A program made the position numbers and the translations under genes. The notes under the pieces are model-generated. The model was not told the DNA's origin, searched no databases, and saw only the letters and a program-made list of their open reading frames with translations. Shown here piece by piece: positions 33,793-58,927 of a stretch of DNA of 58,991 nucleotides; position 1 is the first letter of the stretch; every line of letters begins with the position of its first letter. The DNA is from a virus (Duplodnaviria > Caudoviricetes). The stretch covers positions 1 to 58,991 of the IMG/VR virus record IMGVR_UViG_3300036862_000046; one strand, 5' to 3'.

Positions 33793-34052
33793 CGTCACGT
33801 AAGGCCGCGTTCGAAGCCGGTATGCTAGACCCAGCGTACACGTCCAAGCTGACCCGCCAAGTCCGTCGCGAGTTCCTCCGTCGCACCGGCGAGGAGCTGG
33901 TCAAGGTCTGCTCCAAGTGCGGGCTGCCGACGATTGCGGCGAGCGCCGGTCCGAGATACTTCGCTTTCAGGTGGTGGCGCCGCGCTAAGGGGCCTCTACG
34001 CCGAGTCGCCTTCCTCTGCCTCGTTCGCGGACACGCCTGGAGATACATCTGA
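33789..34052 (+). CDS. Basic hypothetical protein
   Basis: ATGA overlap; CSKCG. Confidence 0.4.
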   Translation: MTSRKAAFEAGMLDPAYTSKLTRQVRREFLRRTGEELVKVCSKCGLPTIAASAGPRYFAFRWWRRAKGPLRRVAFLCLVRGHAWRYI

Positions 34053-38555: not shown

Positions 38556-39719
38556 GTGTCCAACACCCTCTCCGCGTACAACCCCATCTTCTACGCGACC
38601 GAAGCTCTGATCGCGCTGGAGAAGGCGCTCGGCATGGCGGGTCGTGTCTACCGCCGCCTCGACGCCGACAAGGGTCGCCAGCCCGGCGACACCATCACCA
38701 TCCGTCGGCCCGCGGTCTTCACCGCCGTCGACGCCCCGACGTCCGCCGCGAACCTCGTGGCCGACTCGGTCAACGTGACCCTCAACAAGTGGAAGGAAGT
38801 CAAGTTCGGACTGACGGACGCCGAGCTGACCTACGCCGGGGACCGCATCGTCTCCGAGCACATCCGACCCGCGGCCTACGCCTTGGCCGATGCGATCGAC
38901 CAGAGCCTCTGCGCTCTCTACAAGGACGTGCCCTGGTACAGCACCTGGACCTCGACGGCGACGGTGGCCGACGTCCTGACGGCCCGTCAGCGTCTGTTCG
39001 ATAACCACGTCCCGATGAACGACCTCCACTTCATGATCGACGGCAAGCGCGAGGCTGAACTGCTCGCTCTCTCCGCTTTCTCGCAGTGGCAGGGTGACGG
39101 CGCCGCGGGCGTCAGCACTCAGATGACCGGCTCACTCGGCGTGAAGTACGGCCTGGAGATCTTCGCGAACCAGAACGTGGCTCGTGCGGACTCCGCGACG
39201 ATCGCGGACCTTGCCGGCGCCATCAACCAGGGCACGACCCCGACCGGCTACGCGGCCGGCAGCACCTCCATCGCGATTGACGGCGTCACGTCCGGCGCTG
39301 CATTCGAAGCTGGGGACATCGTCGTCATCACCGGTCACACTCAGCAGTACGTGTTGACGGCAGACGTGACCTTCACGACCGGCGCCGGCACCTTGACGAT
39401 CTTCCCCGGCCTGGAAGCGTTCACGGAAGACAACACCGTGGTGACCGTCGTCCTGTCCGGCGGATCGGGCGCGACGAAGTCGCAGTCCTTGGCCTTCAAC
39501 CGGAACGCCTTCGCGCTCGCGATGGCTCCTCTCTCCGAGATGGGTAACGGCCGCGGCGCCGAGATCTTCACTGCTACGGACCCCGTCACGGGTCTCGCGG
39601 TCCGCGCTCGTCTGTTCTACGACGGTACGAACTCGAAGCTGTTCGTCAGCCTCGACGCTCTCTGGGGTGTCAAGACCCTGAACCCGAACCTGGCTACCCG
39701 CGTGTTCGGCACTCCGTAA
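38556..39719 (+). CDS. Major capsid protein (P22 coat-like)
   Basis: GDTITIRRP, IRPAAYALADAID, QN, LAFNRNAFALA, SLDALWGVKTLNPNLA. Confidence 0.9.
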   Translation: MSNTLSAYNPIFYATEALIALEKALGMAGRVYRRLDADKGRQPGDTITIRRPAVFTAVDAPTSAANLVADSVNVTLNKWKEVKFGLTDAELTYAGDRIVSEHIRPAAYALADAIDQSLCALYKDVPWYSTWTSTATVADVLTARQRLFDNHVPMNDLHFMIDGKREAELLALSAFSQWQGDGAAGVSTQMTGSLGVKYGLEIFANQNVARADSATIADLAGAINQGTTPTGYAAGSTSIAIDGVTSGAAFEAGDIVVITGHTQQYVLTADVTFTTGAGTLTIFPGLEAFTEDNTVVTVVLSGGSGATKSQSLAFNRNAFALAMAPLSEMGNGRGAEIFTATDPVTGLAVRARLFYDGTNSKLFVSLDALWGVKTLNPNLATRVFGTP

Positions 39720-42860: not shown

Positions 42861-43042
42861 GCGCGCTGCTCGGAGCGGACGGACGTCCTCTGCGCCGGAT
42901 CGAGACGGCGAAGAACTCGACGCGCTGCGAGGGTTGTGGCGGAACGAACATCACCAACGAGGCCGGCTTCGGCGGGCACGTTACCAGGGTTTGTCTCACG
43001 TGCGGCGCGGACCAAGTTCGCTGCTGCGAGGTATCAGAGTAA
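42857..43042 (+). CDS. Small zinc-ribbon protein
   Basis: CEGCG..GFGG..CLTCG. Confidence 0.5.
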   Translation: MSALLGADGRPLRRIETAKNSTRCEGCGGTNITNEAGFGGHVTRVCLTCGADQVRCCEVSE

Positions 43043-44019
43043 TGGCGCAACACAAGCCGGGACACGCGTTCCTCGTCGTGGGAGGCCGCGACCTCAGCTC
43101 CGACACGTTCTCCCTGGAGGAGACGGTCGAGTACGCGCAGACGGACCTGATGGGACTTCACGAGACGTGGGAGGCCCGCGCTCCGGTCGGCGTCGCTAAG
43201 ACCACGCTCGCGGCCGGCGGCGGGTACTACGACTCGGCCACAGACCGGATCGTCGACGCGCTCCAGGAACAGGGTGAGACGCAGCAGCTCGTCAGCTTCG
43301 GGTTCGCGGACGACGTGGTAGGTGCCGGAGTGACGATGCTCGACGGCGCACTCGCGGTGAAGTGGAAGCGGATGGCGTCGCGCGAGGACCTGACCAAGGC
43401 CAACGGCGAGTACGTGGTCTCGGGCACGAACTACCGTGGGCGGATCCTTCACGGGCTAACCGCGGAGACCGCGGCAGGTAACACGGAAGCCACGCCGATC
43501 GACACCTACGCTGACGTCCTGCTCCCGAGCGTTCAGATACTCACGTCCGACGGCGGGTCACCCGTCACCGTGACGACCGCTGTACCGCACGGCCTGATCA
43601 CCGGCGACGTCGTGGTGATCTCCGGTCACGAGGACGGAACTACGCCTCCGACGAGCCCGCTCAACGCGGAGTTCACGGTGACGGTCACCAGTACGACGAC
43701 GTTCACGGTCTCGGTCGTGGCGACGCCCGGCACGGGCGGAGTGCTCAAGAAGGTCACGTCCTCCGGCGCGATCGTGGACATGCACGTCCCGGCCATCTCG
43801 CTCGGCGGCTACACGAACCTCGCCGTGCTCGTCAGGACGAAGGCGACGGGCGGAGCGTACTCGACGGTAGGGACGTTCGCCACGGTGACCACGGTCGGGG
43901 CACAGCGCATCACGATCTCCTCGGCGACGCAGGTCAAGCGATACGTCGCGATCTCCTGGACGCTGACGGGCTCGGGATCGGGTCCCAGCTTCGTGCCCTA
44001 TGTCGCTATCTCCAAGTGA
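43042..44019 (+). CDS. Tail structural protein with FCCH-like beta insertion
   Basis: G.DLS tube-like N-term; VTT..PHGL.TGD.V.ISG. Confidence 0.6.
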   Translation: MAQHKPGHAFLVVGGRDLSSDTFSLEETVEYAQTDLMGLHETWEARAPVGVAKTTLAAGGGYYDSATDRIVDALQEQGETQQLVSFGFADDVVGAGVTMLDGALAVKWKRMASREDLTKANGEYVVSGTNYRGRILHGLTAETAAGNTEATPIDTYADVLLPSVQILTSDGGSPVTVTTAVPHGLITGDVVVISGHEDGTTPPTSPLNAEFTVTVTSTTTFTVSVVATPGTGGVLKKVTSSGAIVDMHVPAISLGGYTNLAVLVRTKATGGAYSTVGTFATVTTVGAQRITISSATQVKRYVAISWTLTGSGSGPSFVPYVAISK

Positions 44020-44194: not shown

Positions 44195-44623
44195 ATGGCC
44201 AAGAGCAAGCCGAGCGATATCGTCATCGAGTACAGCGACGGGCAGACCACGCCTTCGCTCGTCGACATCACGTCCTTCATCATGACGATCAACGACGTGG
44301 AAGTCGAGACCCTCCAGGAGCAGTCGAACTCGCTCGGCACGAGCTGGGAGGAGCACCTCCCGATCGGCGTCGGCAAGGTCGGCCCGATCGAGCTGGGCGG
44401 GTTCTTCGACGACGTGAACGACGGACCAGACGAGTTGTTCTCGCGTCCCAGCGGACCCGAGGACCCGGACACGGACAGCCGTGAGCTGAAGATCACCTGG
44501 CGCGGGACCAAGACCACGAGCGTTCAGACGTATCTTCAGAGCTACACGCGCAGCGCGGACCGCGCGGGGCTCACAAAGTTTAAGGTGAAGCTCACCCCGA
44601 CGGGCGCCGTTACCGAGGCCTGA
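44195..44623 (+). CDS. Major tail tube protein
   Basis: VDITSFI, LG..WEE...G, L.G.FDD, LTPTGAVTEA; SD GAGGAG. Confidence 0.7.
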   Translation: MAKSKPSDIVIEYSDGQTTPSLVDITSFIMTINDVEVETLQEQSNSLGTSWEEHLPIGVGKVGPIELGGFFDDVNDGPDELFSRPSGPEDPDTDSRELKITWRGTKTTSVQTYLQSYTRSADRAGLTKFKVKLTPTGAVTEA

Positions 44624-45111
44624 TGATCTACGCGCTCGTGCATCCGGATACGCTTGAGATACGCTACGTCGGAAAAACCGGCGTGGGTGTTTCCGAGCGT
44701 TTTCGGGAGCACCGTAAGAACGCTCGTCGGGGAGCGCAGAATCCTGTCTACCGTTGGTGGCGTAAGTGTGAGTCGGAGCCGGTTGCGATTAGCTTGGGCG
44801 CCGGTGATTCGGTGGAAGAGATTCAATGGATAGCAGATCTCCGCCAACAGGGAGCGCGTCTTCTTAACTGTACGGACGGCGGCGACGGCTGTAGGGTCAC
44901 TCCCGAAACAAAAGCAAAACAAAGTGACTCAGCTCGTACATCCTGGAAGGTCGTTAGGGCGAACAAACGACACGGCACGAAACACTCCCCTGAAGCGCGT
45001 TTGAAAATGTCAATCGCGACAAAGGGCAAGCCGCGGAGCATCGGGGCGTGTCTGTACTCCGGAGCATCGCGCAAAGACATCAGAAAAAATGCGCGTCGCG
45101 CGTGCCAGTAA
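44623..45111 (+). CDS. GIY-YIG-type homing endonuclease
   Basis: IYAL..P..IRYVGKT, E..WI, LLNCTDGGDG, HSPEAR.KMS. Confidence 0.8.
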   Translation: MIYALVHPDTLEIRYVGKTGVGVSERFREHRKNARRGAQNPVYRWWRKCESEPVAISLGAGDSVEEIQWIADLRQQGARLLNCTDGGDGCRVTPETKAKQSDSARTSWKVVRANKRHGTKHSPEARLKMSIATKGKPRSIGACLYSGASRKDIRKNARRACQ

Positions 45112-45602: not shown

Positions 45603-45931
45603 GGGCGCTCCATCAACTTCTCGATGATGAGGTGCCCGATGACTACGACGTGTACAGGCTCTGGGCGATCACGGTCGCCGCGGAGCACTGGCACGTCCTG
45701 CCTTCCGTCGCAGCCAGGGATCTCGACGACGACCCGCAGCAACTTGCCCTGGTCTGCCGGACGCTGAGTATATACGCGCAAGCTAAGGCCGCGTTCGACA
45801 CCGCGACGGACGACTCGCAGTTGGAGGCGTGGAAGTCCTCGGAGCTGATGACTCAGGTCCAGGCTAACGCGTTCGCGTTCCACAAGGAACGCACGGCACG
45901 ACGGAAGAAGGAGAGGGCGACGCGTGGCTGA
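45590..45931 (+). CDS. Tail assembly chaperone, -1 frameshift extension (GT-like)
   Basis: A AAA AAC at 45590-45596; -1 frame open into ORF 45632..45931. Confidence 0.7.
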   Translation, partial: KKRLRALHQLLDDEVPDDYDVYRLWAITVAAEHWHVLPSVAARDLDDDPQQLALVCRTLSIYAQAKAAFDTATDDSQLEAWKSSELMTQVQANAFAFHKERTARRKKERATRG

Positions 45932-48863
45932 TGTGAACGTCGGGACCATCGAGGCGGTCATCAAGCTTCGAGACGACATGTCTATCGCCCTGGTGGAGGT
46001 GACTAAGGCTCTCGGCGCGGTCACGGCTGCGCTGAAGCAGGCGCAGGACGCTACCGAGAAGCACTCGAACGCGAACGCGAAGGGCGCTAAAGAGAGTGAG
46101 GGAACTATCGGTTCCCTGGTCAAGATGGCTGCCGCGTACATCACGGTCCGCGGCGCTATCGACTTCGTGACGTCCTCTCTCCGCGCTCAGGGAGAATCCG
46201 AAGCCGCGGTCAACAAGCTCAACCTCGCCCTGGCTAATCAGGGCACCTTCACCGCGGCCACGAGCAAGAGCCTCATCGACTACTCCGCCGCGATGCAGGA
46301 CGTCTCGACTCAGAACGACGAGGCGATTCTCGGGTCTGAGGCGATGTTCACGCAGTTCGGTCTCGGAGAGGCCGCGACGAAGCGATCGACTCAGGCGGCC
46401 CTAGACCTCGCGGCCGGTCTCGGTGTCTCCTTGGAGCAGGCAACCCGAACTATCACGATGGCCCATGGCGGCCATACTGGCGCGCTGTCCAAGCTCGGGT
46501 TCTCGTTCGAAGAGGGGATGACCAAGGGTCAGAAGTTCGAGGCCGCGCTCGCGCAGATCGAGCAGAGGATGGGCGGCCAGGCGCTCGCCGCGACGAAGAC
46601 GTATCAGGGCGGCGTGGCTCAGCTCGGGAACGCGTGGGACGACGCCAAGGAGCAGTTCGGCAAGTTCCTTGGCGCTTTGTCCGGCGGACAGAAGCCCTTC
46701 GAGGATCTGATCGGCTGGGCGAAGGCCGCGGGAGACTTCTTCGGGAAGACTCTTCCCATAGTGTGGTCGGAGGCTAAGGCTCAGTACTTGGAGTTCATCG
46801 CGGCGATCGCTGAAGGAAACGCCAAGATCACCGGCGCCTTCGCGTCCATGTTCGAGACGATGGGCAAGGCGCTGTCGCACATCCCGTTGATGTCCGAGGA
46901 GTCCAAGGTCTTCTTGGACATAGGCAAGTCAATTCGAGGCGCGGCCGATCAAGAGGAGCAATTCGCGGTCCAGATGCGAAGCGGTGCCGCCGCCGCGAGG
47001 AAGTGGGGCGAGGAAGTCGCCGCGTCGTCCGGACATATTCAAGACGTCCGCAAGGGCCTGCACGGCGCTGGACCGGAACTCGACGAGATGTCGGAGGCCG
47101 CGAAGAAGGCCGCCGAGTCCCAGAAGAAGCTCGCCGAAGCTATCGCGGAGGTGGTTCAGAAGAACCGGGACCGCATGCAGCTCGAAGGGATCAAGCGTAA
47201 CGAGGACACGGATAAGGGTATGGCCGAGACTTTCAAGAACAACACGAAGATGCTCGTCGACGGACTGGAGGAAGAGGGCCGACTCTGGGAGGAGAACCAG
47301 AAGAAGATCAAGGCGATGTGGGAAGAGACGGACCGAGCGGCGGAAGCAGCCGCGCGGCTAGAACGCGCATACGCGCAGTCCGGACGTCAAGTCCAAGGGA
47401 TCTTCGCGGGACTCGGGCAGTCTATTGGCGGGTCGTTCGGCTCCGCGGTGAGCGTCGCGGGCTCTGCCCTTGGCGGGATGATCACGAAGAATACGGCAGG
47501 ACTCGGGAAGTTTGCGGAGGATCACAAGAAAGCTTTCCAAGGCGTCGGAGCGGCTATCAATGGCGCCTCCGCCGCGTGGGCCGCGGGCAGTCAGGCCGCG
47601 TCGAAGGGCGCGGGAGCTATGGCCGGCGCCGCCGCGGGCGCGAAGGCCGGCATGGCACTCGGGCCGTGGGGTGCCGCGATCGGCGCCGTCGTCGGCGGGG
47701 TCATCGGTTTCCTCGGCGCCGCTGCGCGCCTCCGTCGCGAACTCCAGGCCGCGAAGGACGACATCACGATGAACGCCGTCGGGATGGACAAGCTCCGCGA
47801 GGCCGCGGTGAAGGCCGGCGTCTCCCTGGAAGAGTTCATGAAGTCCGGCAAGGGCTTCGAGATGCTCAAGGTCAAGGCCACGGAGTTCGGCATCTCCCTC
47901 GACAAGCTCAACAACGCGAAGAACCTCAAGGACATCAAGGCGGCGCAGGACGAGATCAACCGCAGCTTCGCGATGTGGAAGACGCTCACGGACGCCAACG
48001 GCGGGTCGCTGGAGACCCTGAAGAAGAAGGCCGCGGAAGCGGGCATCAGCCTCCAGGCGGCTCTCACCGCCAAGGGCGCGGATCAACTCGCCCTGGCGCT
48101 CGACGTCGTGAAGAAGAAGCTCGGTGACTGGGACCAGGCGCACGAGAAGCTGAACGCTGCGGTGGAAAAGTACAAGTTCACCATCGAGGAACTCGGGCCG
48201 AAGTTCGCGCAGCAGAAGCTAGACGAGCAGTTCGGCACGCTCTTCGAAGACTACCAGCTCCTCTCCGCAGCCGGCGTGAGTCACGTCGCGATCATCGAGC
48301 GGATGGGGCCGGTGCTGAACGAGTACGTCAACAACGCCGTCGCCGCCGGCGGCACGATACCCGAAGCGATGCGTCCAGTTCTCGAGGAGATGATCAAGAA
48401 CGGACAGCTGCTCGACGCGAACGGCCACGCCTACCGCTCCGTCGAGGAAGCCGGCATCCAGTACGCGATGACGACGTCTGAGGCGATGGCGCTCCTCATC
48501 GACAAGATCACGACCCTGGTCAATGCGCTCCTCGGTATCCCGACCGACGTCAACACGAACGTCAACACGAACTACACGTCTTCCGGCGAGACCAACCCGG
48601 GCAGCGCGAGCGGCGGCGGGTTCCGCGGCGGAGACGAGCCCGGGTTCGCGTCCGGCTCCGCGGGGTTCCGTGACTTCGGCGCCGGCACCAGGGTCATGCT
48701 CCACGGCCGGGAGGCTGTCGTCCGCCAGGGGGACTCGATGCCGGGTGGCGGAGGTAACTCCGGGAACCTCGGCGCCGAACTCCGGGGCCTACGCGCCGAG
48801 CTGAAGAACCTCTCCCGTACGCTCCCGCGCGCGGTACGGGACGGCGTTCTCCTGGCCGGGTAA
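45924..48863 (+). CDS. Tape measure protein
   Basis: 979 aa Ala/Gly-rich helical; GPWGAAIGAVVGG; FASG..DFG.GT.VMLHG.EAV. Confidence 0.9.
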   Translation: MADVNVGTIEAVIKLRDDMSIALVEVTKALGAVTAALKQAQDATEKHSNANAKGAKESEGTIGSLVKMAAAYITVRGAIDFVTSSLRAQGESEAAVNKLNLALANQGTFTAATSKSLIDYSAAMQDVSTQNDEAILGSEAMFTQFGLGEAATKRSTQAALDLAAGLGVSLEQATRTITMAHGGHTGALSKLGFSFEEGMTKGQKFEAALAQIEQRMGGQALAATKTYQGGVAQLGNAWDDAKEQFGKFLGALSGGQKPFEDLIGWAKAAGDFFGKTLPIVWSEAKAQYLEFIAAIAEGNAKITGAFASMFETMGKALSHIPLMSEESKVFLDIGKSIRGAADQEEQFAVQMRSGAAAARKWGEEVAASSGHIQDVRKGLHGAGPELDEMSEAAKKAAESQKKLAEAIAEVVQKNRDRMQLEGIKRNEDTDKGMAETFKNNTKMLVDGLEEEGRLWEENQKKIKAMWEETDRAAEAAARLERAYAQSGRQVQGIFAGLGQSIGGSFGSAVSVAGSALGGMITKNTAGLGKFAEDHKKAFQGVGAAINGASAAWAAGSQAASKGAGAMAGAAAGAKAGMALGPWGAAIGAVVGGVIGFLGAAARLRRELQAAKDDITMNAVGMDKLREAAVKAGVSLEEFMKSGKGFEMLKVKATEFGISLDKLNNAKNLKDIKAAQDEINRSFAMWKTLTDANGGSLETLKKKAAEAGISLQAALTAKGADQLALALDVVKKKLGDWDQAHEKLNAAVEKYKFTIEELGPKFAQQKLDEQFGTLFEDYQLLSAAGVSHVAIIERMGPVLNEYVNNAVAAGGTIPEAMRPVLEEMIKNGQLLDANGHAYRSVEEAGIQYAMTTSEAMALLIDKITTLVNALLGIPTDVNTNVNTNYTSSGETNPGSASGGGFRGGDEPGFASGSAGFRDFGAGTRVMLHGREAVVRQGDSMPGGGGNSGNLGAELRGLRAELKNLSRTLPRAVRDGVLLAG

Positions 48864-51166
48864 TGGCAGTCACGCCCTTCCAGCCGATCGTCGAGGCGCT
48901 CCTCCCGATCGATCCCTCGACTCTGAGTCCCACGGCGTGGTACCGCTCCGACTCCCTGGAGGCGCTAGCGGACGGCGCGCTACTCGCTCAGTGGGACGAC
49001 GAGTCGGGTAACGGCCGACATCTCACGGCGCCTTCCGCCGGCGTCAAGCCGTCCGTCGCCAAGGGCATCCTCGGCAAGCGGTCCGCGGTCCGCTTCGACG
49101 GCGCGGCCAACCCGATGTACTTCACGACGGTCGGACCGCCCGCGTTCACGCTCGGGGACCTGATCACGGCCTCCGCCGGGACGGTCATCGCGGTGACGCG
49201 AGGCGATTCGGACGCCGTGGCCGGGAGCAGGATCTTCCACGCCGGCACCCTAGCGGACCTGGCCAACGGGCAGTCCGTCCGCCTGGTCTACACCGGCGTT
49301 ACGAACCTCCGCGCGGCGAACCGCAGCGGCTCGGCGCAGCAGATCATCGGGACACTGACTCCCGTCTCCGTGGACAACTGGTTCATCACGCAGTGGCGCC
49401 ACGGGAGCAGCCTCCAGTACATGGCGGCCGACGACCTCGACGACGACGGGATGAACTCCATCTCCAGCGGCGACACGGACTCCGCGGTCCTCGGATGGAG
49501 AGTGGGGGTCGGCGCCGTCGCGGACGGGACGTCGCTCCTCAAGGGCCACATCGCCGAGCTGATCTTCTTCGCCACGGACCTGACCCAGGCGCAGCGCCGA
49601 GGGGTCGCGCTCTACCTCGCTCGGAAGTACTCCCTGGTGTACGCGTCCACTATGCCGACGGACTGGACGACGCTGTCCGTCCTCGCGGATCCGGGCGTCA
49701 CCGCGGAGCGCGGGATACACGGCACGTCCTTCACGGACCGCGTCGCGTCGACGGGCACCATGTCCTTCGACCTGGACAACTCCTCGCGTCAGTACTCGCC
49801 CGACTCTCTCGCCGACTGGCTCGTAGGGTTCGACGTGGGGCTCGACGTCCGGCTCCGCGTCGTCTTCGACAACCTGAACCAGGTCATCTGGCGCGGACGC
49901 ATCGACGAGGTGACCCCGACCACGGGCAAGATCGGCCGGCGCGTCACGGTCCACGCCGTGGACTGGATGGACGAGGCCGCGAAGGCTAAGCTCTCCGTCC
50001 AGGCGGTCGTGACGGACAAGCGCTCGGACGAGATCTTCGTGATCCTCGCCGCGGCGGTGAACACCCAGCCTACCGCGACGACCTACACCCAGGGCGCGGA
50101 CACGTATCCCTACGCCTTCGACTCCGCGCGCGACGAAGACATTTCGGTGATGTCCGAGTTCCAGCGCGTGTGTATGTCCGAGATCGGGTTCGTGTACCTG
50201 AAGGGCGACGGCACCCTGGTATTCGAGGGCCGGAGGAAACGCGGTACCAGGAGCGTCGCCATCGCGACCCTCGCGGACGACAGGTCCACGGGCCTGGAAC
50301 TCAGCCGCGCGCGCTCCGCGATCCTGAATAACATCAAGGTGGAGTCCCACCCTCGCCGCAAGGACACGTCGAACCAGGTGCTCTTCACCCTGGAGCAGGC
50401 GCCCGCCATCCCGCGTATGACGTCCGCGACGTTCGTTTGTACGTACCGCGACCCGTCCCAGAAGTCTACCAGGGTGGGCGGGGTGTCAATGGTAGCGCCG
50501 GTCGTCACCACGGACTACCTCTTCAACGAGCTAGCGGACGGGACGGGAGTCGTGAGGACGACGCAGCTCACCGTCACCGCGACGTTCGGCGGTAACTCCG
50601 CGTCCGTGGTCGTGACGAACAACGGGCCTCAGGACGGCTTCCTGACGCTGCTCCAGCTCCGGGGGCTCGGGCTCTACGACTTCGAGACGGTGCTCTCCAC
50701 GTCCCGGGACACGGCGTCCGTCGCTCGCTACGGTGAGTGGGCGTACTCGGTCAGCATGCCCTACCAGGCAGACGCGGTCGTGGCGGCGGAGGCCGCGGCG
50801 TATATCGCGGCGAACAACAAGGACCCGCAGACCCGGATCTCGTCCGCGGAGATGAAGGCCGTGTCGTCGAGCACCAAGAAGTTCCTCATCAAGCGCGAGA
50901 TCTCGGACCGCATCACCGTCACGGAGACGCAGTCGGGAGTATCCGCAGACTACTTCGTCAACGGTATCTCCTACGAGTTCACGGGACACTCGCTCCCGCG
51001 CGTCACGTACACCCTGGCGCCGGCCGACACGACGGGGTACTGGACGCTCCAGGTCGCGGGGCTGTCGGAATTGGATCGGACGACGCGGCTCGGGTACGGC
51101 ATCTTCGTTGCGAAGTGGGTGCTCGATCTCTCGACGGTAAGCGTCGACACGATCGTGAACGTCTGA
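48863..51166 (+). CDS. Tail tip/baseplate protein with LamG-like domain
   Basis: AWYRSD, QWDD.SGNG.H, G.IAELI..L..YL..KY; RG..G..F.LDN, E.G..Y..GDG.L.F. Confidence 0.75.
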   Translation: MAVTPFQPIVEALLPIDPSTLSPTAWYRSDSLEALADGALLAQWDDESGNGRHLTAPSAGVKPSVAKGILGKRSAVRFDGAANPMYFTTVGPPAFTLGDLITASAGTVIAVTRGDSDAVAGSRIFHAGTLADLANGQSVRLVYTGVTNLRAANRSGSAQQIIGTLTPVSVDNWFITQWRHGSSLQYMAADDLDDDGMNSISSGDTDSAVLGWRVGVGAVADGTSLLKGHIAELIFFATDLTQAQRRGVALYLARKYSLVYASTMPTDWTTLSVLADPGVTAERGIHGTSFTDRVASTGTMSFDLDNSSRQYSPDSLADWLVGFDVGLDVRLRVVFDNLNQVIWRGRIDEVTPTTGKIGRRVTVHAVDWMDEAAKAKLSVQAVVTDKRSDEIFVILAAAVNTQPTATTYTQGADTYPYAFDSARDEDISVMSEFQRVCMSEIGFVYLKGDGTLVFEGRRKRGTRSVAIATLADDRSTGLELSRARSAILNNIKVESHPRRKDTSNQVLFTLEQAPAIPRMTSATFVCTYRDPSQKSTRVGGVSMVAPVVTTDYLFNELADGTGVVRTTQLTVTATFGGNSASVVVTNNGPQDGFLTLLQLRGLGLYDFETVLSTSRDTASVARYGEWAYSVSMPYQADAVVAAEAAAYIAANNKDPQTRISSAEMKAVSSSTKKFLIKREISDRITVTETQSGVSADYFVNGISYEFTGHSLPRVTYTLAPADTTGYWTLQVAGLSELDRTTRLGYGIFVAKWVLDLSTVSVDTIVNV

Positions 51167-51190: not shown

Positions 51191-51478
51191 ATGGCCTGGA
51201 CTACGCCGCGAACCTGGGTGGCCGGAGAACTGGTCACCGAGACGGTGCTCAACACGGACCTGCGCGACAACCTCAACCTTCTCAAGACGTCGATCTCCGA
51301 CGCGGGGAAACTGAACGCGCTTTCTACGACGTACCTCGCTGATCTGAGCGGCGTGAACCTGACAGGCGTCTCTCTCCTCGCCTCGAACAACGTCCACACG
51401 GCTGGTATCAACAACTTCAACGGCGGCGCGGCTACCAGGGTCCTGATCCCGGTGGGTGCCGACCTCTGGGCCGTGTAA
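51191..51478 (+). CDS. Short tail-fibre-family protein
   Basis: MAWTTPRTW..GE.VT...N...RDNL; SD AAGGAG; CGGTATAAT upstream. Confidence 0.7.
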   Translation: MAWTTPRTWVAGELVTETVLNTDLRDNLNLLKTSISDAGKLNALSTTYLADLSGVNLTGVSLLASNNVHTAGINNFNGGAATRVLIPVGADLWAV

Positions 51479-51481
51479 GAG

Positions 51482-51652
51482 ATGCAGAGCTACTCATGCG
51501 ATACTTGTGGCGCTCCCGCGACGCTCGTCGTCGCGGATATGTCCGTAGACGGGTCAGGGTCGTGGGCGGTCTACTCGCCGACAGGTACCGGTCGATCCGG
51601 CTGCGACGAGCACACTGTAGAGAGCATCATCTCTAAGCACGAGCAGCCGTAA
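51482..51652 (+). CDS. Small CxxC...CxxH protein (56 aa)
   Basis: MQSYSCDTCGAPAT...GCDEH; TAATG coupling to next gene. Confidence 0.55.
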   Translation: MQSYSCDTCGAPATLVVADMSVDGSGSWAVYSPTGTGRSGCDEHTVESIISKHEQP

Positions 51653-52644
51653 TGGTGTGGACTTCGCCCCATACGTGGGCTGCTGCGGACCAGCCCACCG
51701 CCGACGCGACCGGAGGCGTGAAGGTTCCGATGAACCTTCACGTCAAGGGCAACATGGATGTTCTCAAGACAAGTATCGACGACGACGGGAAGCTCATCGC
51801 GCTCTCCTCGTCCTACGTCGCTGATCTCTCCGGGGTCAACCTCACCGGCCTCGCGCTGCTCGCCTCGAACGCGACCTACACCGCGGTCAACAACTTCAAC
51901 GGCGGAGGAGCGACGCGAGTGGTCCTGCCCGTCGGCGCCGACAAGTTCGGCGGAGCCGCAGGGAACAAGACGGCGGGGTCGTGGTGGGTGGAACTGACGG
52001 AACTTCATCACGTCTCGTCCGCGCAGGTCGAGTGGTACTACATCGGGACGGTCGTCTCGACCCCCGCCGGCGCTGTCGCGGGATCTGTATGGGTCGACAC
52101 CTCTGACGGTCTCATTCACTACGTCACGTCCGCCGGTGTAGAGCGCGCGGTCGGCGCGGTCATCACGTCGATGCACGCGGACGCGGCGGCGCTACCGGGC
52201 TCGTCTTGGGTAGATACGGACTCGCACCTCCACTGGGTCGCGACGGGCGGACAGGAGGAGGACGGGCATACGGACGTGCCGGCACATAGCGACGTCGCGC
52301 ATGATGACACGCACACGGACTCGCACGATGACGCGCACTCTGACGACCACAGCGACGAGCACTCGGATGGTGCGCATGACGACACGCACGACGACGTCAG
52401 CCATGCGGACTCGCACGCGGACCAGCACTTCGACGTAACGGATGCCGGACATCTGGACTCGCACGGAGACTCGCACAACGATACGGCGCACGACGACGGG
52501 CACGTAGACTCCGCGCATGACGACGCGCACGCGGATGACCACGATGACTCCCACGGGGACTCCGGGTCGACATCACATACTGACACGGCACATACTGACC
52601 ACACGGATACTCACGGAGACCAGCCCACGAGTCTCGGTACATGA
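51652..52644 (+). CDS. Tail-fibre-family protein with C-terminal His-x-Asp array (putative RiPP-like substrate)
   Basis: N-term paralogous to 51191 and 56020; 3x GS.WV repeats; 26 HxD triplets. Confidence 0.8.
   Translation: MVWTSPHTWAAADQPTADATGGVKVPMNLHVKGNMDVLKTSIDDDGKLIALSSSYVADLSGVNLTGLALLASNATYTAVNNFNGGGATRVVLPVGADKFGGAAGNKTAGSWWVELTELHHVSSAQVEWYYIGTVVSTPAGAVAGSVWVDTSDGLIHYVTSAGVERAVGAVITSMHADAAALPGSSWVDTDSHLHWVATGGQEEDGHTDVPAHSDVAHDDTHTDSHDDAHSDDHSDEHSDGAHDDTHDDVSHADSHADQHFDVTDAGHLDSHGDSHNDTAHDDGHVDSAHDDAHADDHDDSHGDSGSTSHTDTAHTDHTDTHGDQPTSLGT
52267..52620 (+). repeat. HxD peptide repeat array (26 units)
   Basis: Every His here is followed by x-Asp; codons diversified. Confidence 0.9.
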
Positions 52645-53900
52645 CGCTGGAAGTGAGCCTCCGTGGCGTTTCGTGCAACATGCGCTGCAGCTACTGCTAC
52701 CAGAATCCCGTCCGAGACTCCGGCACTCGTCCGCCCAAGATCGACATGGCCGCGGTGAAGGCTGCCCTGGTCCAGGAGATGGTGCAAGGAAAGAAGGGCG
52801 ACGGCTTCACCGTCTTCGGAGGCGAGCCGCTTTTGGCGACGCTGCCTGAACTCGAAGAGCTGTGGGCCCTCGGTCTCGCGACTGCTGGGAAGAACGGGGT
52901 CCAGACCAACGGGACGCTGATCACCGACGCGCACATCACGGCCTTCAAGCAGTACAAGGTACACGTCGGGTTCTCGGTCGACGGCCCCGGTCTCCTGAAC
53001 AGGAACCGCTGGCTGTTCTCCGACGCCGCGACGGACGCCGGCACGGCGAGGTCCCAGGCCGCCATCGAGCGATGTCTGGCGGAGGGCGTAGGCACCTCGC
53101 TCATCGTAACGCTGTCCCAAACCAACGCGGCTCCGGCCGTACTCCCAGAACTCCTCGCGTGGCTGACCGCCCTGGCTAGCCAGGGACTTCGCTCCGTCCG
53201 GGCCCACGTCCTGGAGGTCGACGGCAAGGAAGGTGAGGCGCTGAAGCTCACGCCGGAGGAGAACGTGGCCGCGCTCGCGGCGCTCGAGGCTCTGGAGGCG
53301 ACGACCCCGCTCCGCTTCGACGTGTTCTCTGACATCCGGAAGCTATTGACCGCAGACGACGATCAGGTGACTTGTGTCTACAACGCCTGCGATCCCTGGA
53401 CCACGCCGGCCGTGCGCGGCGTCGAGGCGGACGGCACGCGGACGAACTGCCAGCGTACCAATAAGGACGGCGTCAACTGGGTCAAGGGCGCCAAGACGTC
53501 CTACGTCCGCCAGCTCGGCCTCTACGCCACGACCCAGGCGAACGGTGGGTGCCAGGGCTGCCGCTTCTTCGTCGGGTGCAAGGGCCAGTGCCCCGGTACC
53601 GCGATAGACGGGGACTGGCGGAACCGCTCGCGCGACTGCCCTACGTGGTTCGCGATGTTCGAGAGGGAGGAGCGCCGGCTGTCGGCCGCGGGCCGCGTGC
53701 CCGTATCGCTCCGTCCCGACCTTCCGAAGATCGAGGCCGCGATGATGGGCGCCTTCGAGCGTGGCCAGTTCATGAGCGTCAAGGGCGCCGTGGCGGTGGC
53801 CGAGGGACGCGCGCCTGCGGCCGGTACTCTCGGGAATTTTCACGGAGATCATCACGGGGACAGTCACGGGGACTCTGACCGTGGTATAATTAAGGGATAA
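52641..53900 (+). CDS. Radical SAM/SPASM domain maturase
   Basis: CNMRCSYC, GGEPLL, QTNG, SVDGP; SPASM C..C, G..NC, CQGC.....C.G.CP, C. Confidence 0.9.
   Translation: MTLEVSLRGVSCNMRCSYCYQNPVRDSGTRPPKIDMAAVKAALVQEMVQGKKGDGFTVFGGEPLLATLPELEELWALGLATAGKNGVQTNGTLITDAHITAFKQYKVHVGFSVDGPGLLNRNRWLFSDAATDAGTARSQAAIERCLAEGVGTSLIVTLSQTNAAPAVLPELLAWLTALASQGLRSVRAHVLEVDGKEGEALKLTPEENVAALAALEALEATTPLRFDVFSDIRKLLTADDDQVTCVYNACDPWTTPAVRGVEADGTRTNCQRTNKDGVNWVKGAKTSYVRQLGLYATTQANGGCQGCRFFVGCKGQCPGTAIDGDWRNRSRDCPTWFAMFEREERRLSAAGRVPVSLRPDLPKIEAAMMGAFERGQFMSVKGAVAVAEGRAPAAGTLGNFHGDHHGDSHGDSDRGIIKG
53881..53890 (+). promoter_or_regulatory. Extended -10 promoter
   Basis: GTGGTATAAT ahead of the endonuclease ATG. 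Confidence 0.45.
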
Positions 53901-54595
53901 TGCACTATCTCTTGTACGCTCTTTACTCCTCACGAGACATCTCGCGACCTAAGTACGTCGGTAAGACTGGTGACCCTGCGAGAAGGCTGCGGCGGCACGT
54001 CTACGACGCGCTGCGGGGTGGAGAGACCTATAAGGACCGGGGCATCCGTAAGGAATACCGCGAAGGTTTCGATGTCTTACCGCGTCCCCTCGCTTGGTTC
54101 GCGACGGAGGCCGAGTGCTTCACTGCGGAGATGTATCTCATAGCTAAATGGCGCGGGAATCTGTGGAACACTACGGCGGGCGGGGAAGGCTTTTCAGGAC
54201 CGCACTCGGCGGAACACAACTTAGCGGTCAGCGTAGCTAAGAAAGGTAAGAGTACCGGGCCTCTGTCTGAAGCAACCAAAGCCAAGATGAGCGCGTCTAC
54301 CAAGGGAAAACCTCATTCGGCCGAGCATAACGCAGCATCGGGCCTTGCCAATCGCGGCCGCAAGCGAACAGCCGAGGCTCGCCACAGAATGCGCATCGCG
54401 AGATTGAATTGGCTGAGTCAAAAGTCCATGTCTTCCGAGACCAGGGCAAAAATGAGCGCGGCGACCCGGGGCAGGCCACACTCGGCGGAGCATAATGCGG
54501 CTGTCGGGCTTGCAAATCGCGGCAAGAAACGTACGCTCGCATCCCGGGCAAAAATGAGCGCGGCGCGGCGAGCGTATTTTTCGAGAATACGTTGA
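53900..54595 (+). CDS. GIY-YIG-type homing endonuclease with NUMOD3 repeats
   Basis: LYALYSS..KYVGKT, N...GGEG, PHSAEHN x3. Confidence 0.85.
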   Translation: MHYLLYALYSSRDISRPKYVGKTGDPARRLRRHVYDALRGGETYKDRGIRKEYREGFDVLPRPLAWFATEAECFTAEMYLIAKWRGNLWNTTAGGEGFSGPHSAEHNLAVSVAKKGKSTGPLSEATKAKMSASTKGKPHSAEHNAASGLANRGRKRTAEARHRMRIARLNWLSQKSMSSETRAKMSAATRGRPHSAEHNAAVGLANRGKKRTLASRAKMSAARRAYFSRIR

Positions 54596-56016
54596 AGGAG
54601 TTCTTCGACGGTCCCGTGTGGTCCTCCACCGCGAACCAGAAGCTCTGGGAGCCTCGGCTGCGCGCCATATCGAACGCGTGGCAGGAGCTGGAACTCCGGA
54701 GCGTGGCGGCGGGACTCCGCAACTCCGCGCTCGTGACTATTCCCATCGAGACCTTCGCGGCGAGACAGCAGGCAGCCCTGGACGTGGGACTCGTGTCGAC
54801 CGTACTCGGGTCCACGTTCTCGGCCGACTCCTACGCTGCGGGCCCTACGTCCTCCGGTCGCCCGGCGCTCCGCGTCGCGGTACACCGGCCTGGGCTGGGA
54901 AAAGACTGGCGTGAAGCGTGGGCTGGGTCAGATAACGAGACCATCGGCGTTCTCCTCGGTTTCCCGGCGTGCTGCCGTAAGTTCTTCCATACCGCTTGGA
55001 CCGGCGCAGGGGGCATAGACTCGACCCCGGCGATGTGGGGCGTCGAGGGCCCCGCGATCTCGAACATCCTTCTCCGGTGGCTCGGCGTACGCCTCGTGCC
55101 TCATCTTCCCTGTCGCGGAGACTGCACCGCGACGGCGAGTCAGGCCGGAGACTTCCACAACCTCGGCCGCACGACCGGGCTAGGGGACGTGATGGACTGG
55201 GCCGAGGAAGCTCTCGGATGGCCGATGACCTGGAGCGCGACCAACGGGATAGGGGAGGTCGTGACCCCGGTCCTCAAGTTCCGGTTCTCCACGGTCGTGA
55301 GCCCGAGTACGGTCCTCCGTTCCAGGAAAGGCACCGTTCCGCTAAGCGCGGAACAACGGGAGACCCGGAACGACCCGCGCGCGTCCGCGGTGTGGACGAG
55401 CAACGGGTTCGCGTCCTTCGACTCGATGAAGTCCGCACACGCCGTCGTGATGAACGCCGTCAAGGCGTCCGGCTTCACCGGGGGCCGGGTCCTCGACCTC
55501 GGGTGCGGGGACGGGCGGCTGCTGAGCTGGATCACGCTGATCTTCCCGGGTACCGAGGGGTACGGGATCGACACGGACGCCGGGCGGATCGCCAGGGGCA
55601 AGGACCGAGACCCTCGCCTGCATCTCGGGGTGGACGACATCTCGAATTTCGGGCTGCCGGAGCCGGGGGACGAGCCGTGGGACCTGGTACTCCTGATGCC
55701 CGGGAGACTCCTGGAGTTCGATCGCGGCATAGACCTCGCGCGGCTCTTGCCGCAGATCGCGAAGCGCGTCGTCGTGTACGCGTACGGCGACTGGCTGGCC
55801 CGCTACGGGGCGAGGGAAGAAGGTTCCGGACTAGTCCCGCTCGCCGAGGACGCGGGGCTTCGGCTGTCGAGCGCCGTCATATACGGACCCGGGGTCGCTG
55901 CGGCCACGGTGAAACTGGTCTGCGGTGCGCGAACGTGTCAAGACGCGATCTGCGATGCTCCGGTATTTCCTGGGCATCATCACGACGGGCCGTCTTTCCC
56001 GTCCGAAGAGGAATAA
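54592..56016 (+). CDS. Cys-motif (DUF483-like) domain fused to class I SAM methyltransferase
   Basis: G.LLGFPACC..FF, N.LLRWLGVR.VPHLPC..DC; VLDLGCGDG, GID. Confidence 0.75.
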   Translation: MKEFFDGPVWSSTANQKLWEPRLRAISNAWQELELRSVAAGLRNSALVTIPIETFAARQQAALDVGLVSTVLGSTFSADSYAAGPTSSGRPALRVAVHRPGLGKDWREAWAGSDNETIGVLLGFPACCRKFFHTAWTGAGGIDSTPAMWGVEGPAISNILLRWLGVRLVPHLPCRGDCTATASQAGDFHNLGRTTGLGDVMDWAEEALGWPMTWSATNGIGEVVTPVLKFRFSTVVSPSTVLRSRKGTVPLSAEQRETRNDPRASAVWTSNGFASFDSMKSAHAVVMNAVKASGFTGGRVLDLGCGDGRLLSWITLIFPGTEGYGIDTDAGRIARGKDRDPRLHLGVDDISNFGLPEPGDEPWDLVLLMPGRLLEFDRGIDLARLLPQIAKRVVVYAYGDWLARYGAREEGSGLVPLAEDAGLRLSSAVIYGPGVAAATVKLVCGARTCQDAICDAPVFPGHHHDGPSFPSEEE

Positions 56017-56019
56017 GCG

Positions 56020-56607
56020 ATGGCGTGGACCACCCCGAGGACCTGGAACCCAGGCGAGTTTGTAACTGCTACGATGATGAACGCGCATGTGCGCGACAAC
56101 CTCAACATCGTCAAGACGTCCGTCGCGGACGACGGGCTCCTGAACGAGTTGGTCGTCGCGACCATCCTCGCGTCGGCGAACGTCACGACGGGGGAGACGG
56201 ACCTCGCGGGATACACCTATACCGTCGCGGCGGGTAAGTTCGCGGACGGCGAGGGTCTGGAGATCCACGCTACGGGGACGCTCGCGGCGAACACGAACAC
56301 GAAGACGCTCCGGATCGACGTCGGCGGCCAGAAGGTGACCCTGGTCCTCAACACGACGAACGTCGCGAGCAACGTGTTCAATGTCCGGGTGCGGGTGATC
56401 CGTAACGCTGCGACGACGGCTATCCTCACGGGGACGTCGAGCTTCAACGCGGCGTCCGGCGCTGCGCCTACGGTCTGGCACTTCGCCGCGGCTATCTCCT
56501 CGCTCACCTGGTCCGGCGCGACGATCGTCAAGCTCACCGCGCAGTCCAGCGCAGCGTCGAACGACATCATCATGTCGTCCGGGCAGTTCGAGATCAAGGC
56601 TTCGTGA
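56020..56607 (+). CDS. Tail-fibre-family protein with C-terminal beta-sandwich
   Basis: MAWTTPRTW..GEFVTA..MN.HVRDNL. Confidence 0.7.
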   Translation: MAWTTPRTWNPGEFVTATMMNAHVRDNLNIVKTSVADDGLLNELVVATILASANVTTGETDLAGYTYTVAAGKFADGEGLEIHATGTLAANTNTKTLRIDVGGQKVTLVLNTTNVASNVFNVRVRVIRNAATTAILTGTSSFNAASGAAPTVWHFAAAISSLTWSGATIVKLTAQSSAASNDIIMSSGQFEIKAS

Positions 56608-57350
56608 TCGACTGGAGCCGGGTCGCAGAGCCGTCGTTCTATTCTAACCGGCGCATCCAGGAATACGCGCAGTGTCGCTGGCCCGGCCTCCGCACCGGAC
56701 ACTTCGACGTAGAGATACTCGGGCGGGAACTGTCCGAGGCGTATGGCCCCGCGGAGATACCGACCGTTAATCCAGTCCTCGACTGCCTAGACGCCTGGCC
56801 CGAAGGCGAGCAAGCCGTGTTCGGCGCGGCAGGGTGCTTCTGGCCCGTGGCCAGGGCCGATGGTAAGCCCGGCGGACTCGGCTGCATGTGCGGCCACGAC
56901 GAGCCGTCGGCGGCCCGGCCCTACGCGACGATCTACGCCTCGACGTGGGATCCAGTCGGCGGTGCCGAGGGTCTCGTTCACGAGGCGGGCCATCTCCGCC
57001 TCAAAGCGCTCGGCGTACAGCTCGAGACCCACGACGGCTTGCTTCTCTCAAACAGCCCAACGGAGCTGTTTGAGAGTCCCATCCGTAAAGACAAACTCCG
57101 ACCGATGTCCGCGGTCCTCCAGGCGCAGTATTCCTACGTGATGGTGACCGCTCTCGACGTCGCCCTGGCTGACGCGGCGCACGCGGCGATTAACCTCCCT
57201 CGGATCCTCGAGGGACGGGAGACCCTTCGGCACTCCGCCAGGTGGACTGCCGAAGGGTCTGAGTTCGCACGCGGGCTGTACGACTGGACGACCCGGGTCG
57301 TCGACGCCGCCCTGAAAATAACAGTGGACAACCGGGCTGTCAGGGCATAG
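56604..57350 (+). CDS. alphaKG-HExxH-type peptide beta-hydroxylase-like protein
   Basis: AEGLVHEAGHLRL...ESPIRKDKLRPMSAVLQAQYSY. Confidence 0.8.
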   Translation: MIDWSRVAEPSFYSNRRIQEYAQCRWPGLRTGHFDVEILGRELSEAYGPAEIPTVNPVLDCLDAWPEGEQAVFGAAGCFWPVARADGKPGGLGCMCGHDEPSAARPYATIYASTWDPVGGAEGLVHEAGHLRLKALGVQLETHDGLLLSNSPTELFESPIRKDKLRPMSAVLQAQYSYVMVTALDVALADAAHAAINLPRILEGRETLRHSARWTAEGSEFARGLYDWTTRVVDAALKITVDNRAVRA

Positions 57351-57926: not shown

Positions 57927-58145
57927 ATGAGTCACCTCACGGTCCCGGTAGGGACCCTCGAACACGACGACGCCTTCGTGACCCCCCTCACGGGTCGACT
58001 GGGCCGGATGATAGACTTCCCCGGACTCACCCGTCCTCTGGACGAGGAGGAGTACGGGGAGCTCCACGGCGGGGTCGTGGTTCGCTTCTCCGACGGCATG
58101 GTCAAGGAGCTGCACCGCGACGTGCTGGTGCGGCCTCTCCAGTGA
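57927..58145 (+). CDS. Hypothetical protein
   Basis: SD GGAGG; GTGA overlap with next gene. Confidence 0.55.
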   Translation: MSHLTVPVGTLEHDDAFVTPLTGRLGRMIDFPGLTRPLDEEEYGELHGGVVVRFSDGMVKELHRDVLVRPLQ

Positions 58146-58927
58146 AGTTCCACGAGGCCTGGCACGACGTTCTAGACGCCACGCTCCACGCCGGCATCGA
58201 GTCCGCCCCGCGCGGGAAGAGAGTCCTCGAGCGCATCGGTGTCGCGGTGAGGTTCGACGGCCTGAGCGCGTTGCTCGTTCACCCCGGACGGGCGCTCAAC
58301 TACCGCTTCGCCGTGGCCGAGTGGCTGTGGATCGCGCGCGGTATCGACCTCCTCGCTCCCTTGACGCGGTACAACTCCCGGATGGCCGAGTTCTCGGACG
58401 ACGGGGAGACCCTGGCCGGCGCGTACGGACCGCGGCTCCTGGGCCAGTGGGCGTACGTCGTGGACAAGCTCCGGGACGACCCGGACTCCCGCCAGGCGGT
58501 AGCGTCGATCTGGACGCCGAACCCCGCGCCCTCGAGGGACGTCCCCTGCACCCTCTCCGTGCAGTTTCTGGTCCGCGACGGTCGGGTCCACGGGATCTGG
58601 AACATGCGCTCCAGCGACCTATGGCTCGGCCTCCCCTACGACGCCTTCAGCTTCGCCCGTCTTACGTCCTGCGTCGCCGGCGAGTTGGGTCTCCGGACGG
58701 GCTTCGTGGAGATCCACGCTGGGTCGAGTCACCTGTACAAGGAGCACTGGGGCTCCGCCATCCGCGTCATCGGACGCCGCCCCGACGGCAGAACTGTCCG
58801 CTCGCCCGAGCTGACCGGTTTCCCACAGTTCGCAGGAACGTTTCATCAGGAGCCGTGGTCCAGGTACGCCGACGTCCTCGAGTCCCGGTCCTCGGCCGCG
58901 GCTCTCGAGGTCCTGGAGCGACCGTGA
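58142..58927 (+). CDS. Thymidylate synthase-family protein, probable dCMP (hydroxy)methylase
   Basis: PRG, AE.LW, GAYGPR, SRQAV, DVPC, MRSSD.WLG.PYD, SSHLY. Confidence 0.85.
   Translation: MKFHEAWHDVLDATLHAGIESAPRGKRVLERIGVAVRFDGLSALLVHPGRALNYRFAVAEWLWIARGIDLLAPLTRYNSRMAEFSDDGETLAGAYGPRLLGQWAYVVDKLRDDPDSRQAVASIWTPNPAPSRDVPCTLSVQFLVRDGRVHGIWNMRSSDLWLGLPYDAFSFARLTSCVAGELGLRTGFVEIHAGSSHLYKEHWGSAIRVIGRRPDGRTVRSPELTGFPQFAGTFHQEPWSRYADVLESRSSAAALEVLERP

Follow-up and report, generated by a model that had tools for sequence, protein, structure and literature searches.

What is an enzyme of the HExxH type doing at the end of the tail-gene block of a phage? The question is raised by open reading frame (ORF) 56604-57350 of the IMG/VR record IMGVR_UViG_3300036862_000046, a tailed-phage (Caudoviricetes) genome of 58,991 bp that we analysed in full and refer to as the window. 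An earlier note on this DNA had read the ORF as a stand-alone alpha-ketoglutarate (aKG)-HExxH-type enzyme in a phage tail module, acting as a beta-hydroxylase of Asp and His in an array of H-x-D triplets. We find that its product is supported as a member of the aKG-HExxH family by profile and by model, and on balance we favour its being an Fe(II)/aKG HExxH oxygenase that serves as an accessory tailoring enzyme of a cassette resembling those for peptides that are ribosomally synthesised and then post-translationally modified (RiPPs), with beta-hydroxylation of array Asp and His as its reaction. Papers cited below by PMC number are drawn on from parts of their text.

Two structures with this fold serve as references throughout, ChlH (the ChlB-HExxH domain, PDB 8s5f) and SjiH (22ob/22nu), and the gene and its two motifs lie as follows:

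56604-57350, + strand: stand-alone aKG-HExxH-type peptide oxygenase, 248 amino acids (aa), assigned from TIGR04267.2 and fold

56979-56993, + strand: HEAGH motif (H126, E127, H130), presumed metal site, aligning with the HExxH of ChlH and of 22nu/SjiH

57075-57104, + strand: SPIRKDKLRP motif (S158, P159, R161, D163, R166, P167), aligning with SPWReD-LRP of ChlH/SjiH

The ORF, HEAGH and SPIRKDKLRP are all where the earlier note had placed them, with LVHEAGH at residues 124-130 and SPIRKDKLRPMSAVLQ at residues 158-173, and the 248-aa ORF is indeed stand-alone. Its start codon is a GTG that overlaps the stop of the upstream gene as GTGA, and this start is supported because homologues share the M-IDW-RVA-P beginning of the ORF. 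HExxH alone is a weak signal: translating the window in six frames yields 10 instances, where 50 shuffles average 2.6. Only one instance is left when SP.R.D..RP is required 20-40 residues downstream of HExxH. The 54 homologues that we collected are 136-434 aa long; the alignment uses 31, and omits fragments, partial matches and near-duplicates of kept rows. H126, E127, H130, S158, P159, R161, D163, R166 and P167 are invariant in all 31. The second motif had been given as SP(W)RxDxRP, and we take SPWRxDxRP to be family-defining on the strength of the earlier note and of the alignments with ChlH and SjiH rather than of the primary paper. Its S, P, R, D, R and P are present and invariant, but its spacing did not hold here: the motif reads SPxRxDxxRP, with one extra residue between D and RP compared with ChlH and SjiH, and I replaces W. 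Position 173 is Q in the 248-aa protein and in SjiH, and H in most homologues and in ChlH. Three soil-metagenome DNA sequencing runs contain the stretch, and short contigs from them are identical over the HExxH region, apart from a G>A at 57273 that a single run shows; among the sequencing runs listed, no RNA run contains the stretch.

The earlier note had proposed a hidden Markov model search against HExxH peptide-modification families. Run here, this search gave TIGR04267.2 (NCBIfam, aKG-HExxH-type peptide beta-hydroxylase; IPR026337) at 55.3 bits, above its cut-off of 40 (E 7.7e-15), over residues 96-225 and profile positions 39-177 of 177; a genome-wide search returned the same model on the protein at 57.1 bits, and all 31 aligned homologues match it. 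It is the sole NCBIfam match of the protein, for which Pfam gave no family at E <= 0.1, peptidases included, and PHROG no match. When a profile of the homologues was compared with the PDB, ChlH 8s5f (6.5e-5) and 22nu (5.2e-5) were found with both motifs aligned. The AlphaFold2 model of the 248-aa protein (predicted local distance difference test, pLDDT, 96; predicted template-modelling score, pTM, 0.93) has ChlB-HExxH 8s5f as its best Foldseek match (E 6e-7, probability 1.00, TMq 0.58) and SjiH 22ob as its second (E 3e-5), followed by a weak third, the putative Zn peptidase 4l7a (E 5e-3, TM 0.34). Exhaustive alignment with VIA-align gave 8s5f_A at Z 16.4 (217 residues, root-mean-square deviation 3.5, covering residues 1-233) and 22ob_A at Z 16.3 over 225 residues; after these two aKG-HExxH structures the scores drop to Z 7.0, with unrelated helical proteins, and no protease appears among the 50 best matches of the model. 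Profile and modelled fold together thus support the product as an aKG-HExxH family member outside the classical protease families, and bear out the identity that had been read from its motifs.

The HExxH gene is the end of the tail-gene block, so that its placement in a phage tail module also stands. Downstream of the gene for a 767-aa virion structural protein the cassette genes are tightly packed, many of them overlapping, and the rSAM/SPASM gene shares an operon with that of the HExxH enzyme:

51191-51478, + strand: adaptor-only paralogue, 95 aa, 56% identical to residues 1-97 of the H-x-D protein

51652-52644, + strand: tail-fibre-like H-x-D array protein, 330 aa, putative substrate, array at residues 196-330

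52641-53900, + strand: radical S-adenosylmethionine (rSAM)/SPASM peptide maturase, 419 aa; PF04055 4.3e-11; Fer4_12; HGD repeats at the C-terminus

53900-54595, + strand: GIY-YIG/NUMOD3 homing-endonuclease-like gene; NUMOD3 2.1e-8, GIY-YIG 3.8e-4

54592-56016, + strand: DUF483-like N-domain (~1-255) and class I S-adenosylmethionine methyltransferase (~265-410), 474 aa; methyltransferase Pfam matches

56020-56607, + strand: 195-aa protein with N-terminal adaptor, 64% identical over 44 residues to ORF 51191-51478

The likeliest substrate of the HExxH enzyme would be the 135-residue C-terminal array of the 330-aa protein, which is laid out as an adaptor (~1-100), three GSxWV..LH[YW] repeats (~110-200) and the array (196-330, nucleotides 52237-52641). 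The array had been claimed before, and it is real: it holds 26 H-x-D triplets, and all 26 of its His precede x-Asp, whereas 1000 shuffled versions of the array averaged 7.2 and never exceeded 14. Spacing between the His is mainly 4-5 residues, and the arrays of relatives also contain Y-x-D and H-x-N. Relatives have arrays fused to virion or tail proteins. In two loci (L017/L037 in our numbering) the array lies within a 1136-aa protein like the central tail fibre J (phrog_5616 5e-57, phrog_31 9e-46, PF13550), and 9 rSAM loci have an ORF that combines an HxD array with the last ~500 residues of the 767-aa homologue; among 10 array-bearing large proteins of rSAM loci, PHROG matched 1 (virion structural protein, 4e-9). 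For the N-terminus of the array protein, the Atlas matches were clusters of viral hypothetical proteins (0.90) and one cluster for tail trimerisation (0.87), which serve as leads only. A predicted complex of the HExxH enzyme with residues 100-330 of the array protein scored 0.00 in two runs made without controls, and is evidence neither way.

The maturase carries the invariant CxxxCxxC cysteines C12, C16 and C19 and further invariant cysteines C245, C250, C270, C304, C307, C313, C317 and C333, each in 15 of 15 sequences. Its best NCBIfam matches are cyclophane-forming maturases, every one of them below its own cut-off (AmcB 72.5 vs 425 bits, FxsB 35.5 vs 370 bits), so that it exceeds the cut-off of no named NCBIfam cyclophane-synthase family; its nearest solved structures are anSME 4k36 (4e-21) and the rSAM domain of ChlB (6e-15).

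On the pathway that we favour, the rSAM would act first on each H-x-D of the array, giving for example a His-to-Asp C-beta three-residue cyclophane crosslink as in triceptides. Such a cyclophane is the most plausible rSAM product because triceptide synthases, which crosslink His-C2 to the C-beta of X3, do likewise on HAA, HNR and HTK (PMC11499958). The HExxH enzyme would then oxidise, that is beta-hydroxylate, Asp and/or His of the array, by analogy with ChlH, which hydroxylates Asp and His after cyclophane formation (PMC12636437). The order of these steps, like the substrate and the exact chemistry, we infer. Gene neighbourhoods and domain fusions make the array the most plausible substrate, as the earlier note had supposed.

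Domain fusions were taken from a profile search for HExxH against 1.84 billion representatives, which returned 1950 proteins at E <= 1e-3, 423 at 1e-10 and 280 at 1e-30. Architectures were counted in 196 proteins, namely the 150 best representatives plus earlier matches. Short stand-alone forms account for 142 of these. Fused forms comprise DUF483like-HExxH (11, plus 1 in reversed order), DUF483like-methyltransferase-HExxH (3-4), methyltransferase-HExxH (1) and rSAM-DUF483like-HExxH (3), and a PqqD/RRE peptide-recognition domain, above the Pfam threshold, ends all 10 scanned forms of 379-423 aa and one further protein (P0054). These fusions, which by analogy parallel the rSAM-HExxH fusion of ChlB, are a strong argument for a single peptide/protein modification pathway in which all four enzymes of the window take part.

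We then looked at how the cassette is distributed. Among 19 IMG/VR loci encoding an HExxH relative, several of them duplicates of one phage, 13 contain 6 or more H-x-D triplets within a single ORF and 8 have close homologues of both the rSAM (within 10 kb) and the 474-aa DUF483-methyltransferase protein. The 15 genome loci with HExxH come from Acidobacteriota, Bradyrhizobium, Dehalococcoidia, Nitrospinaceae and Bacteroidota, at least 1 of them duplicating a viral record (L029 = L015). In these, 14 of 15 have an rSAM within 10 kb and 14 of 15 a DUF483-like N-domain; arrays were flagged in 9, and 2 more have arrays that end 1070-aa proteins. In three contigs of Acidobacteriaceae metagenome-assembled genomes (L030 3167-3800, L031 2393-2928, L033 3288-3873), paired PHxDT-repeat peptides of 75-112 aa (measured stop to stop) sit upstream of the rSAM, DUF483-like and HExxH genes and replace the large array proteins; they look like classical RiPP precursors, and the arrangement like a cellular version of the same system. 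Bradyrhizobium chromosomes (L023, L024, L028) carry the rSAM, DUF483-like, HExxH and a separate methyltransferase gene, with no HxD array seen.

Seen from the maturase, the cassette is wider still. A viral scan with the single rSAM protein as query gave no match, while an alignment query succeeded and found the rSAM in at least 88 IMG/VR stretches. The 80 rSAM loci kept have the N-domain in 71, a methyltransferase in 67, an Hx[DN] array in 70, directly upstream of the rSAM and commonly with stop and start overlapping, and HExxH in 10. L039, L040, L046, L059, L073, L089 and L111 all run from the virion protein through the array protein, the rSAM and the methyltransferase to the 195-aa protein; among these seven near relatives only L059 has HExxH. 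The system thus has a core of three parts, namely the H-x-D array protein, the radical SAM/SPASM maturase and the DUF483-like domain; a methyltransferase usually accompanies them, and HExxH is optional. In arrays from loci with HExxH, 95% of Hx[DN] triplets are HxD (540 to 30; 8 loci, duplicates included), as opposed to 77% in loci without it (2234 to 672; 62 loci), but this enrichment of Asp at X3 is a weak trend, the loci being few and non-independent.

The maturase has H-x-D repeats of its own. In the window they lie at 53830-53897, with 3-4 triplets there and in the Thermus phage phiMa, and other phages have long rSAM HxD tails of up to 25 triplets (L006 3053-6509, L012 1081-3129, L093, L104, L106, L107). 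Such rSAMs would be enzyme-substrate fusions or cases of self-modification.

Beyond the viral contigs, neither the cassette DNA nor the HExxH protein, nor the 195-aa protein, matched any of 50,697 phage records, and a search with the first 203 aa of the array protein brought up phiMa alone, as a weak match. A metagenome scan found one 5-kb contig (L117, 52% identity) with nothing else of the module aboard. Relatives of the portal protein (30-35% identity) infect diverse Gram-negatives and cyanobacteria.

Several observations weigh against array hydroxylation by the HExxH enzyme. In 70 of the 80 rSAM loci no HExxH lies within 10 kb, and it is missing from the cultured Thermus phages that bear the module, so that HExxH must be dispensable for the basic role of the array; since most array-bearing phages are without it, hydroxylation would be an embellishment. 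No array was present in the fetched stretch of 6 of the 19 viral HExxH loci, some stretches being incomplete. In L003/L097, one viral contig of 94,654 bp, HExxH and the rSAM module are more than 50 kb apart, and the linkage between the two is therefore not always tight. The enzyme itself departs from ChlH and SjiH by the one-residue insertion in its second motif, and has Q173 instead of the usual H. The chemistry of this HExxH subfamily is predicted by analogy, and the reaction cannot be read off from the family: PflC and PosC differ, in that they hydroxylate Gln, cut the backbone oxidatively and are able to hydrolyse peptides (PMC12636437). Finally, the cyclophane step is itself one that we infer, for a maturase that lies under every NCBIfam cut-off and whose nearest full-length solved relative is anSME.

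That diversity of chemistry opens an alternative, which we consider unlikely, in which family and substrate are the same and the backbone is processed instead, by oxidative or hydrolytic cleavage that trims the array C-terminus or frees array segments. Stand-alone PflC and PosC cut off a tetrapeptide from the C-terminus by oxidation and, with any of several metals, can hydrolyse peptides (PMC12636437), and the end of the arrays has a conserved H-x-D-[KQ]-P with a short tail behind it (HGDQPTSLGT in the window). This ending, however, is not specific to HExxH, since phages without the enzyme have it too (phiMa, with HADQPVRG, and L038, L069, L072 and L084), and no ARMD-like motif was seen.

To much the same degree we doubt that the protein is a true aKG-HExxH oxygenase working on some other substrate, candidates being the HGD repeats that end the rSAM, the 195-aa protein, some other virion protein and a peptide of the host. 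The gene directly upstream of HExxH, and translationally coupled to it, is indeed that of the 195-aa protein and not that of the array protein, the rSAM C-terminus has its HGD repeats, and the large contig L003/L097 separates HExxH from the rSAM module. Yet the 195-aa protein is without repeats or a His/Asp-rich segment, an HxD array accompanies HExxH in 13 of the 19 viral loci, and fusions join the HExxH subfamily with rSAM, DUF483-like and methyltransferase domains.

Some siderophores hold Fe(III) by beta-hydroxy-Asp and beta-hydroxy-His, and arrays rich in His and Asp could plausibly bind metals. On this ligand chemistry, which is general knowledge, the earlier note had built a purpose for the modification, in which hydroxylated array Asp and His bind Fe(III) as a siderophore would and the fibre docks on a siderophore receptor of the host. 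We regard this as speculative and very unlikely. The hydroxylase is missing from 70 of 80 array/rSAM loci, so that the array cannot in general need hydroxylation in order to bind a receptor, and the range of hosts infected by the portal relatives also speaks against it.

A zincin-type zinc metalloprotease, acting as a virion-associated lysin or a maturation protease and merely sharing HExxH, is more improbable still. The HExxH with its Glu is present, and a putative Zn peptidase is third in Foldseek, but strong structural matches are confined to the two aKG-HExxH structures, no protease family matched, as the earlier note had anticipated in setting the protein apart from the zincins, and SPxRxDxxRP is invariant, with RiPP-type enzymes and RRE domains as genetic and fusion partners. 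The extended metzincin motif, HExxHxxGxxH, is absent: counting from the second His of HEAGHLRLKAL, position +3 is not G and position +6 is not H. A zincin-like fold prediction would be no clean refutation of the oxygenase, because the aKG-HExxH family fold is itself described as zincin-like and PflC is able to hydrolyse peptides (PMC12636437).

Scarcely credible, last, is that the rSAM module modifies phage DNA, as was proposed for the Thermus phages Cumys and phiMa, with HExxH an unrelated neighbour: rSAM/DUF483 homologues do lie near deazapurine DNA-modification genes in some cyanobacteria, and the authors propose an unknown DNA modification (PMC11437467), but the third gene of the Thermus module encodes an HxD-array protein, the best matches of the rSAM are SPASM-type peptide/protein maturases, arrays are fused to rSAMs and to tail proteins, and the HExxH subfamily is fused to cassette enzymes and to PqqD peptide-recognition domains.

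We return therefore to array hydroxylation by an accessory HExxH oxygenase, and to the remaining genes of the window. The window is a complete viral record with 65% G+C and every long ORF on the + strand. Its two ends have 127 bp in common, and a thymidylate-synthase-like gene runs into this terminal repeat, by which we take the record to be a circularly closed assembly. Outside the cassette, the genes that could be named are:

34052-35614, + strand: portal (PHROG)

38556-39719, + strand: major head protein (PHROG)

42934-44019, + strand: major tail protein (PHROG)

45924-48863, + strand: 979-aa protein, tape-measure-like by size and position alone

48863-51166, + strand: virion structural protein, 767 aa, upstream of the cassette (phrog_10356 2.6e-14)

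58142-58927, + strand: thymidylate-synthase-like gene (phrog_5131 5e-38), running into the 127-bp terminal repeat (1-127)

Pfam gave nothing useful for the 979-aa and 767-aa proteins or for small neighbouring ORFs, which is why the tape-measure label goes by size and position.

Within the cassette, the homing-endonuclease-like gene is an insertion and probably not part of the pathway; related loci lack it at that position and have the DUF483-like gene directly after the rSAM. A second NUMOD3-containing ORF lies in the tail-gene block at 44623-45111. The DUF483-like N-domain (54592-55356) has invariant C127, C128, D143, H171, C174 and C178, a set of Cys, Asp and His residues that suggests a metal site. 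Its model (pLDDT 84) gave no convincing fold in the PDB, the best matches being at E 0.078 in Foldseek and at Z 7.1, to a protein with no assigned function, in VIA-align. The name DUF483 comes from PMC11437467 and from an Atlas lead at 0.82, Pfam giving no match for the N-domain.

The window has three paralogous adaptors (MAWTTPRTW...NLxxLKTS), at 51191-51478, 51652-51950 and 56020-56150, with 56% identity over 98 and 64% over 44 residues. They head three proteins, one of adaptor only, one of adaptor plus array and one of adaptor plus a beta-rich C-domain, and these may be alternative attachments to one tail site. The last of them, the 195-aa protein, is probably another fibre or tip protein, and in related loci its homologues come next after the methyltransferase gene. 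A 56-aa Cys-containing ORF (CDTCG...CDEH) with no family match, at 51482-51652, separates the adaptor ORF from the array gene.

What the cassette as a whole does for the phage can be put forward as a possibility that we take seriously without quite backing it: that phages use their own RiPP-type enzymes to convert tail-fibre H-x-D arrays into a crosslinked, methylated, hydroxylated and probably metal-binding part of the virion, with HExxH as a lineage-specific decoration that tunes metal or receptor binding. The enzyme would mark as protein-modifying a cassette that 3 cultured Thermus phages carry and that occurs in at least 88 stretches of IMG/VR, and for which the sole published discussion, in the part of it available, proposes DNA modification (PMC11437467). 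As putative substrates it has arrays that form part of tail or virion proteins, instead of leader-core peptides. If true, this would be the first natural-product-style peptide chemistry on a structural protein of a virus. Tail-tip or receptor-binding structures could then bear crosslinks, methyl and hydroxyl groups overlooked by annotation and by modelling from cryo-electron microscopy, with a bearing on host recognition, metal binding and, for the core module in Thermus phages, virion stability; RiPP enzymology would gain a new substrate class and three fused enzyme architectures. Since stand-alone aKG-HExxH enzymes are already known (PflC, PosC, BpmH/BipH), the enzyme itself is only a newcomer to its family, and the similarity network or tables of PMC12636437, a source available in part, may already contain the stand-alone cluster. 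It is the setting, RiPP-type chemistry on a virion protein, that appears to be undescribed: our literature search, which covered articles outside their supplements, found no report linking aKG-HExxH enzymes or cyclophane-type rSAMs to phage tail proteins.

The closest known system is ChlH from Chlorogloeopsis, the aKG-HExxH portion of a protein whose rSAM portion forms cyclophanes (Morishita et al. 2024, via PMC12636437). The window enzyme is like it in the aligned HExxH and SPxRxD..RP, in its fold and in having an rSAM/SPASM partner, and the residues proposed here are those characterised in the substrate of ChlH, Asp and His. It differs in sequence (17-22% identity), in being a stand-alone protein of 248 aa where ChlH is a domain of ~340 residues, in the extra residue of its second motif and in its partner, which is not of the FxsB/ChlB family; and whereas ChlH acts on a leader-core peptide, the putative substrate here is a 330-aa phage structural protein with 26 repeats. 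SjiH is similar in fold, with both motifs aligned and Q at position 173, but is 15% identical and longer (409-440 aa), and a literature search on it found no relevant paper.

PflC/PosC and BpmH/BipH (PMC12636437, PMC12707348, PMC12257519) resemble the window enzyme in being stand-alone members of the same InterPro/NCBIfam family, and their role, RiPP tailoring, is the one that we propose here. Unlike it, they are partnered with MNIO, nitroreductase or B12-rSAM enzymes and act on Gln runs or biphenomycin precursors, and in the available parts of these papers none is phage-borne or linked to HxD arrays. Triceptide pathways (HaaB, HtkB, YhhB) also combine an rSAM/SPASM maturase with repeated aromatic-X-X motifs, His-first ones included (PMC11499958); here, by contrast, X3 is Asp, the substrate would be a large virion protein, the rSAM lies far under the family cut-offs, and the crosslink is proposed by analogy.

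The 'rSAM module' of the Thermus phages Cumys, phiMa and phiLo (PMC11437467) is like the window cassette in its maturase, at 47-49% identity. In phiMa (L036, MH673674, 5661-9191) we find a 98-aa adaptor, an HxD-array protein with three GSxW repeats, the rSAM and a DUF483-like protein; unlike the window, this locus has no HExxH and no methyltransferase domain. The published description, as far as its available part goes, gives the module as containing two unknown proteins, one of them DUF483, with the array protein listed as unknown and the array not mentioned, and proposes DNA modification (PMC11437467). These phages are in culture, and they allow a direct test of the core hypothesis.

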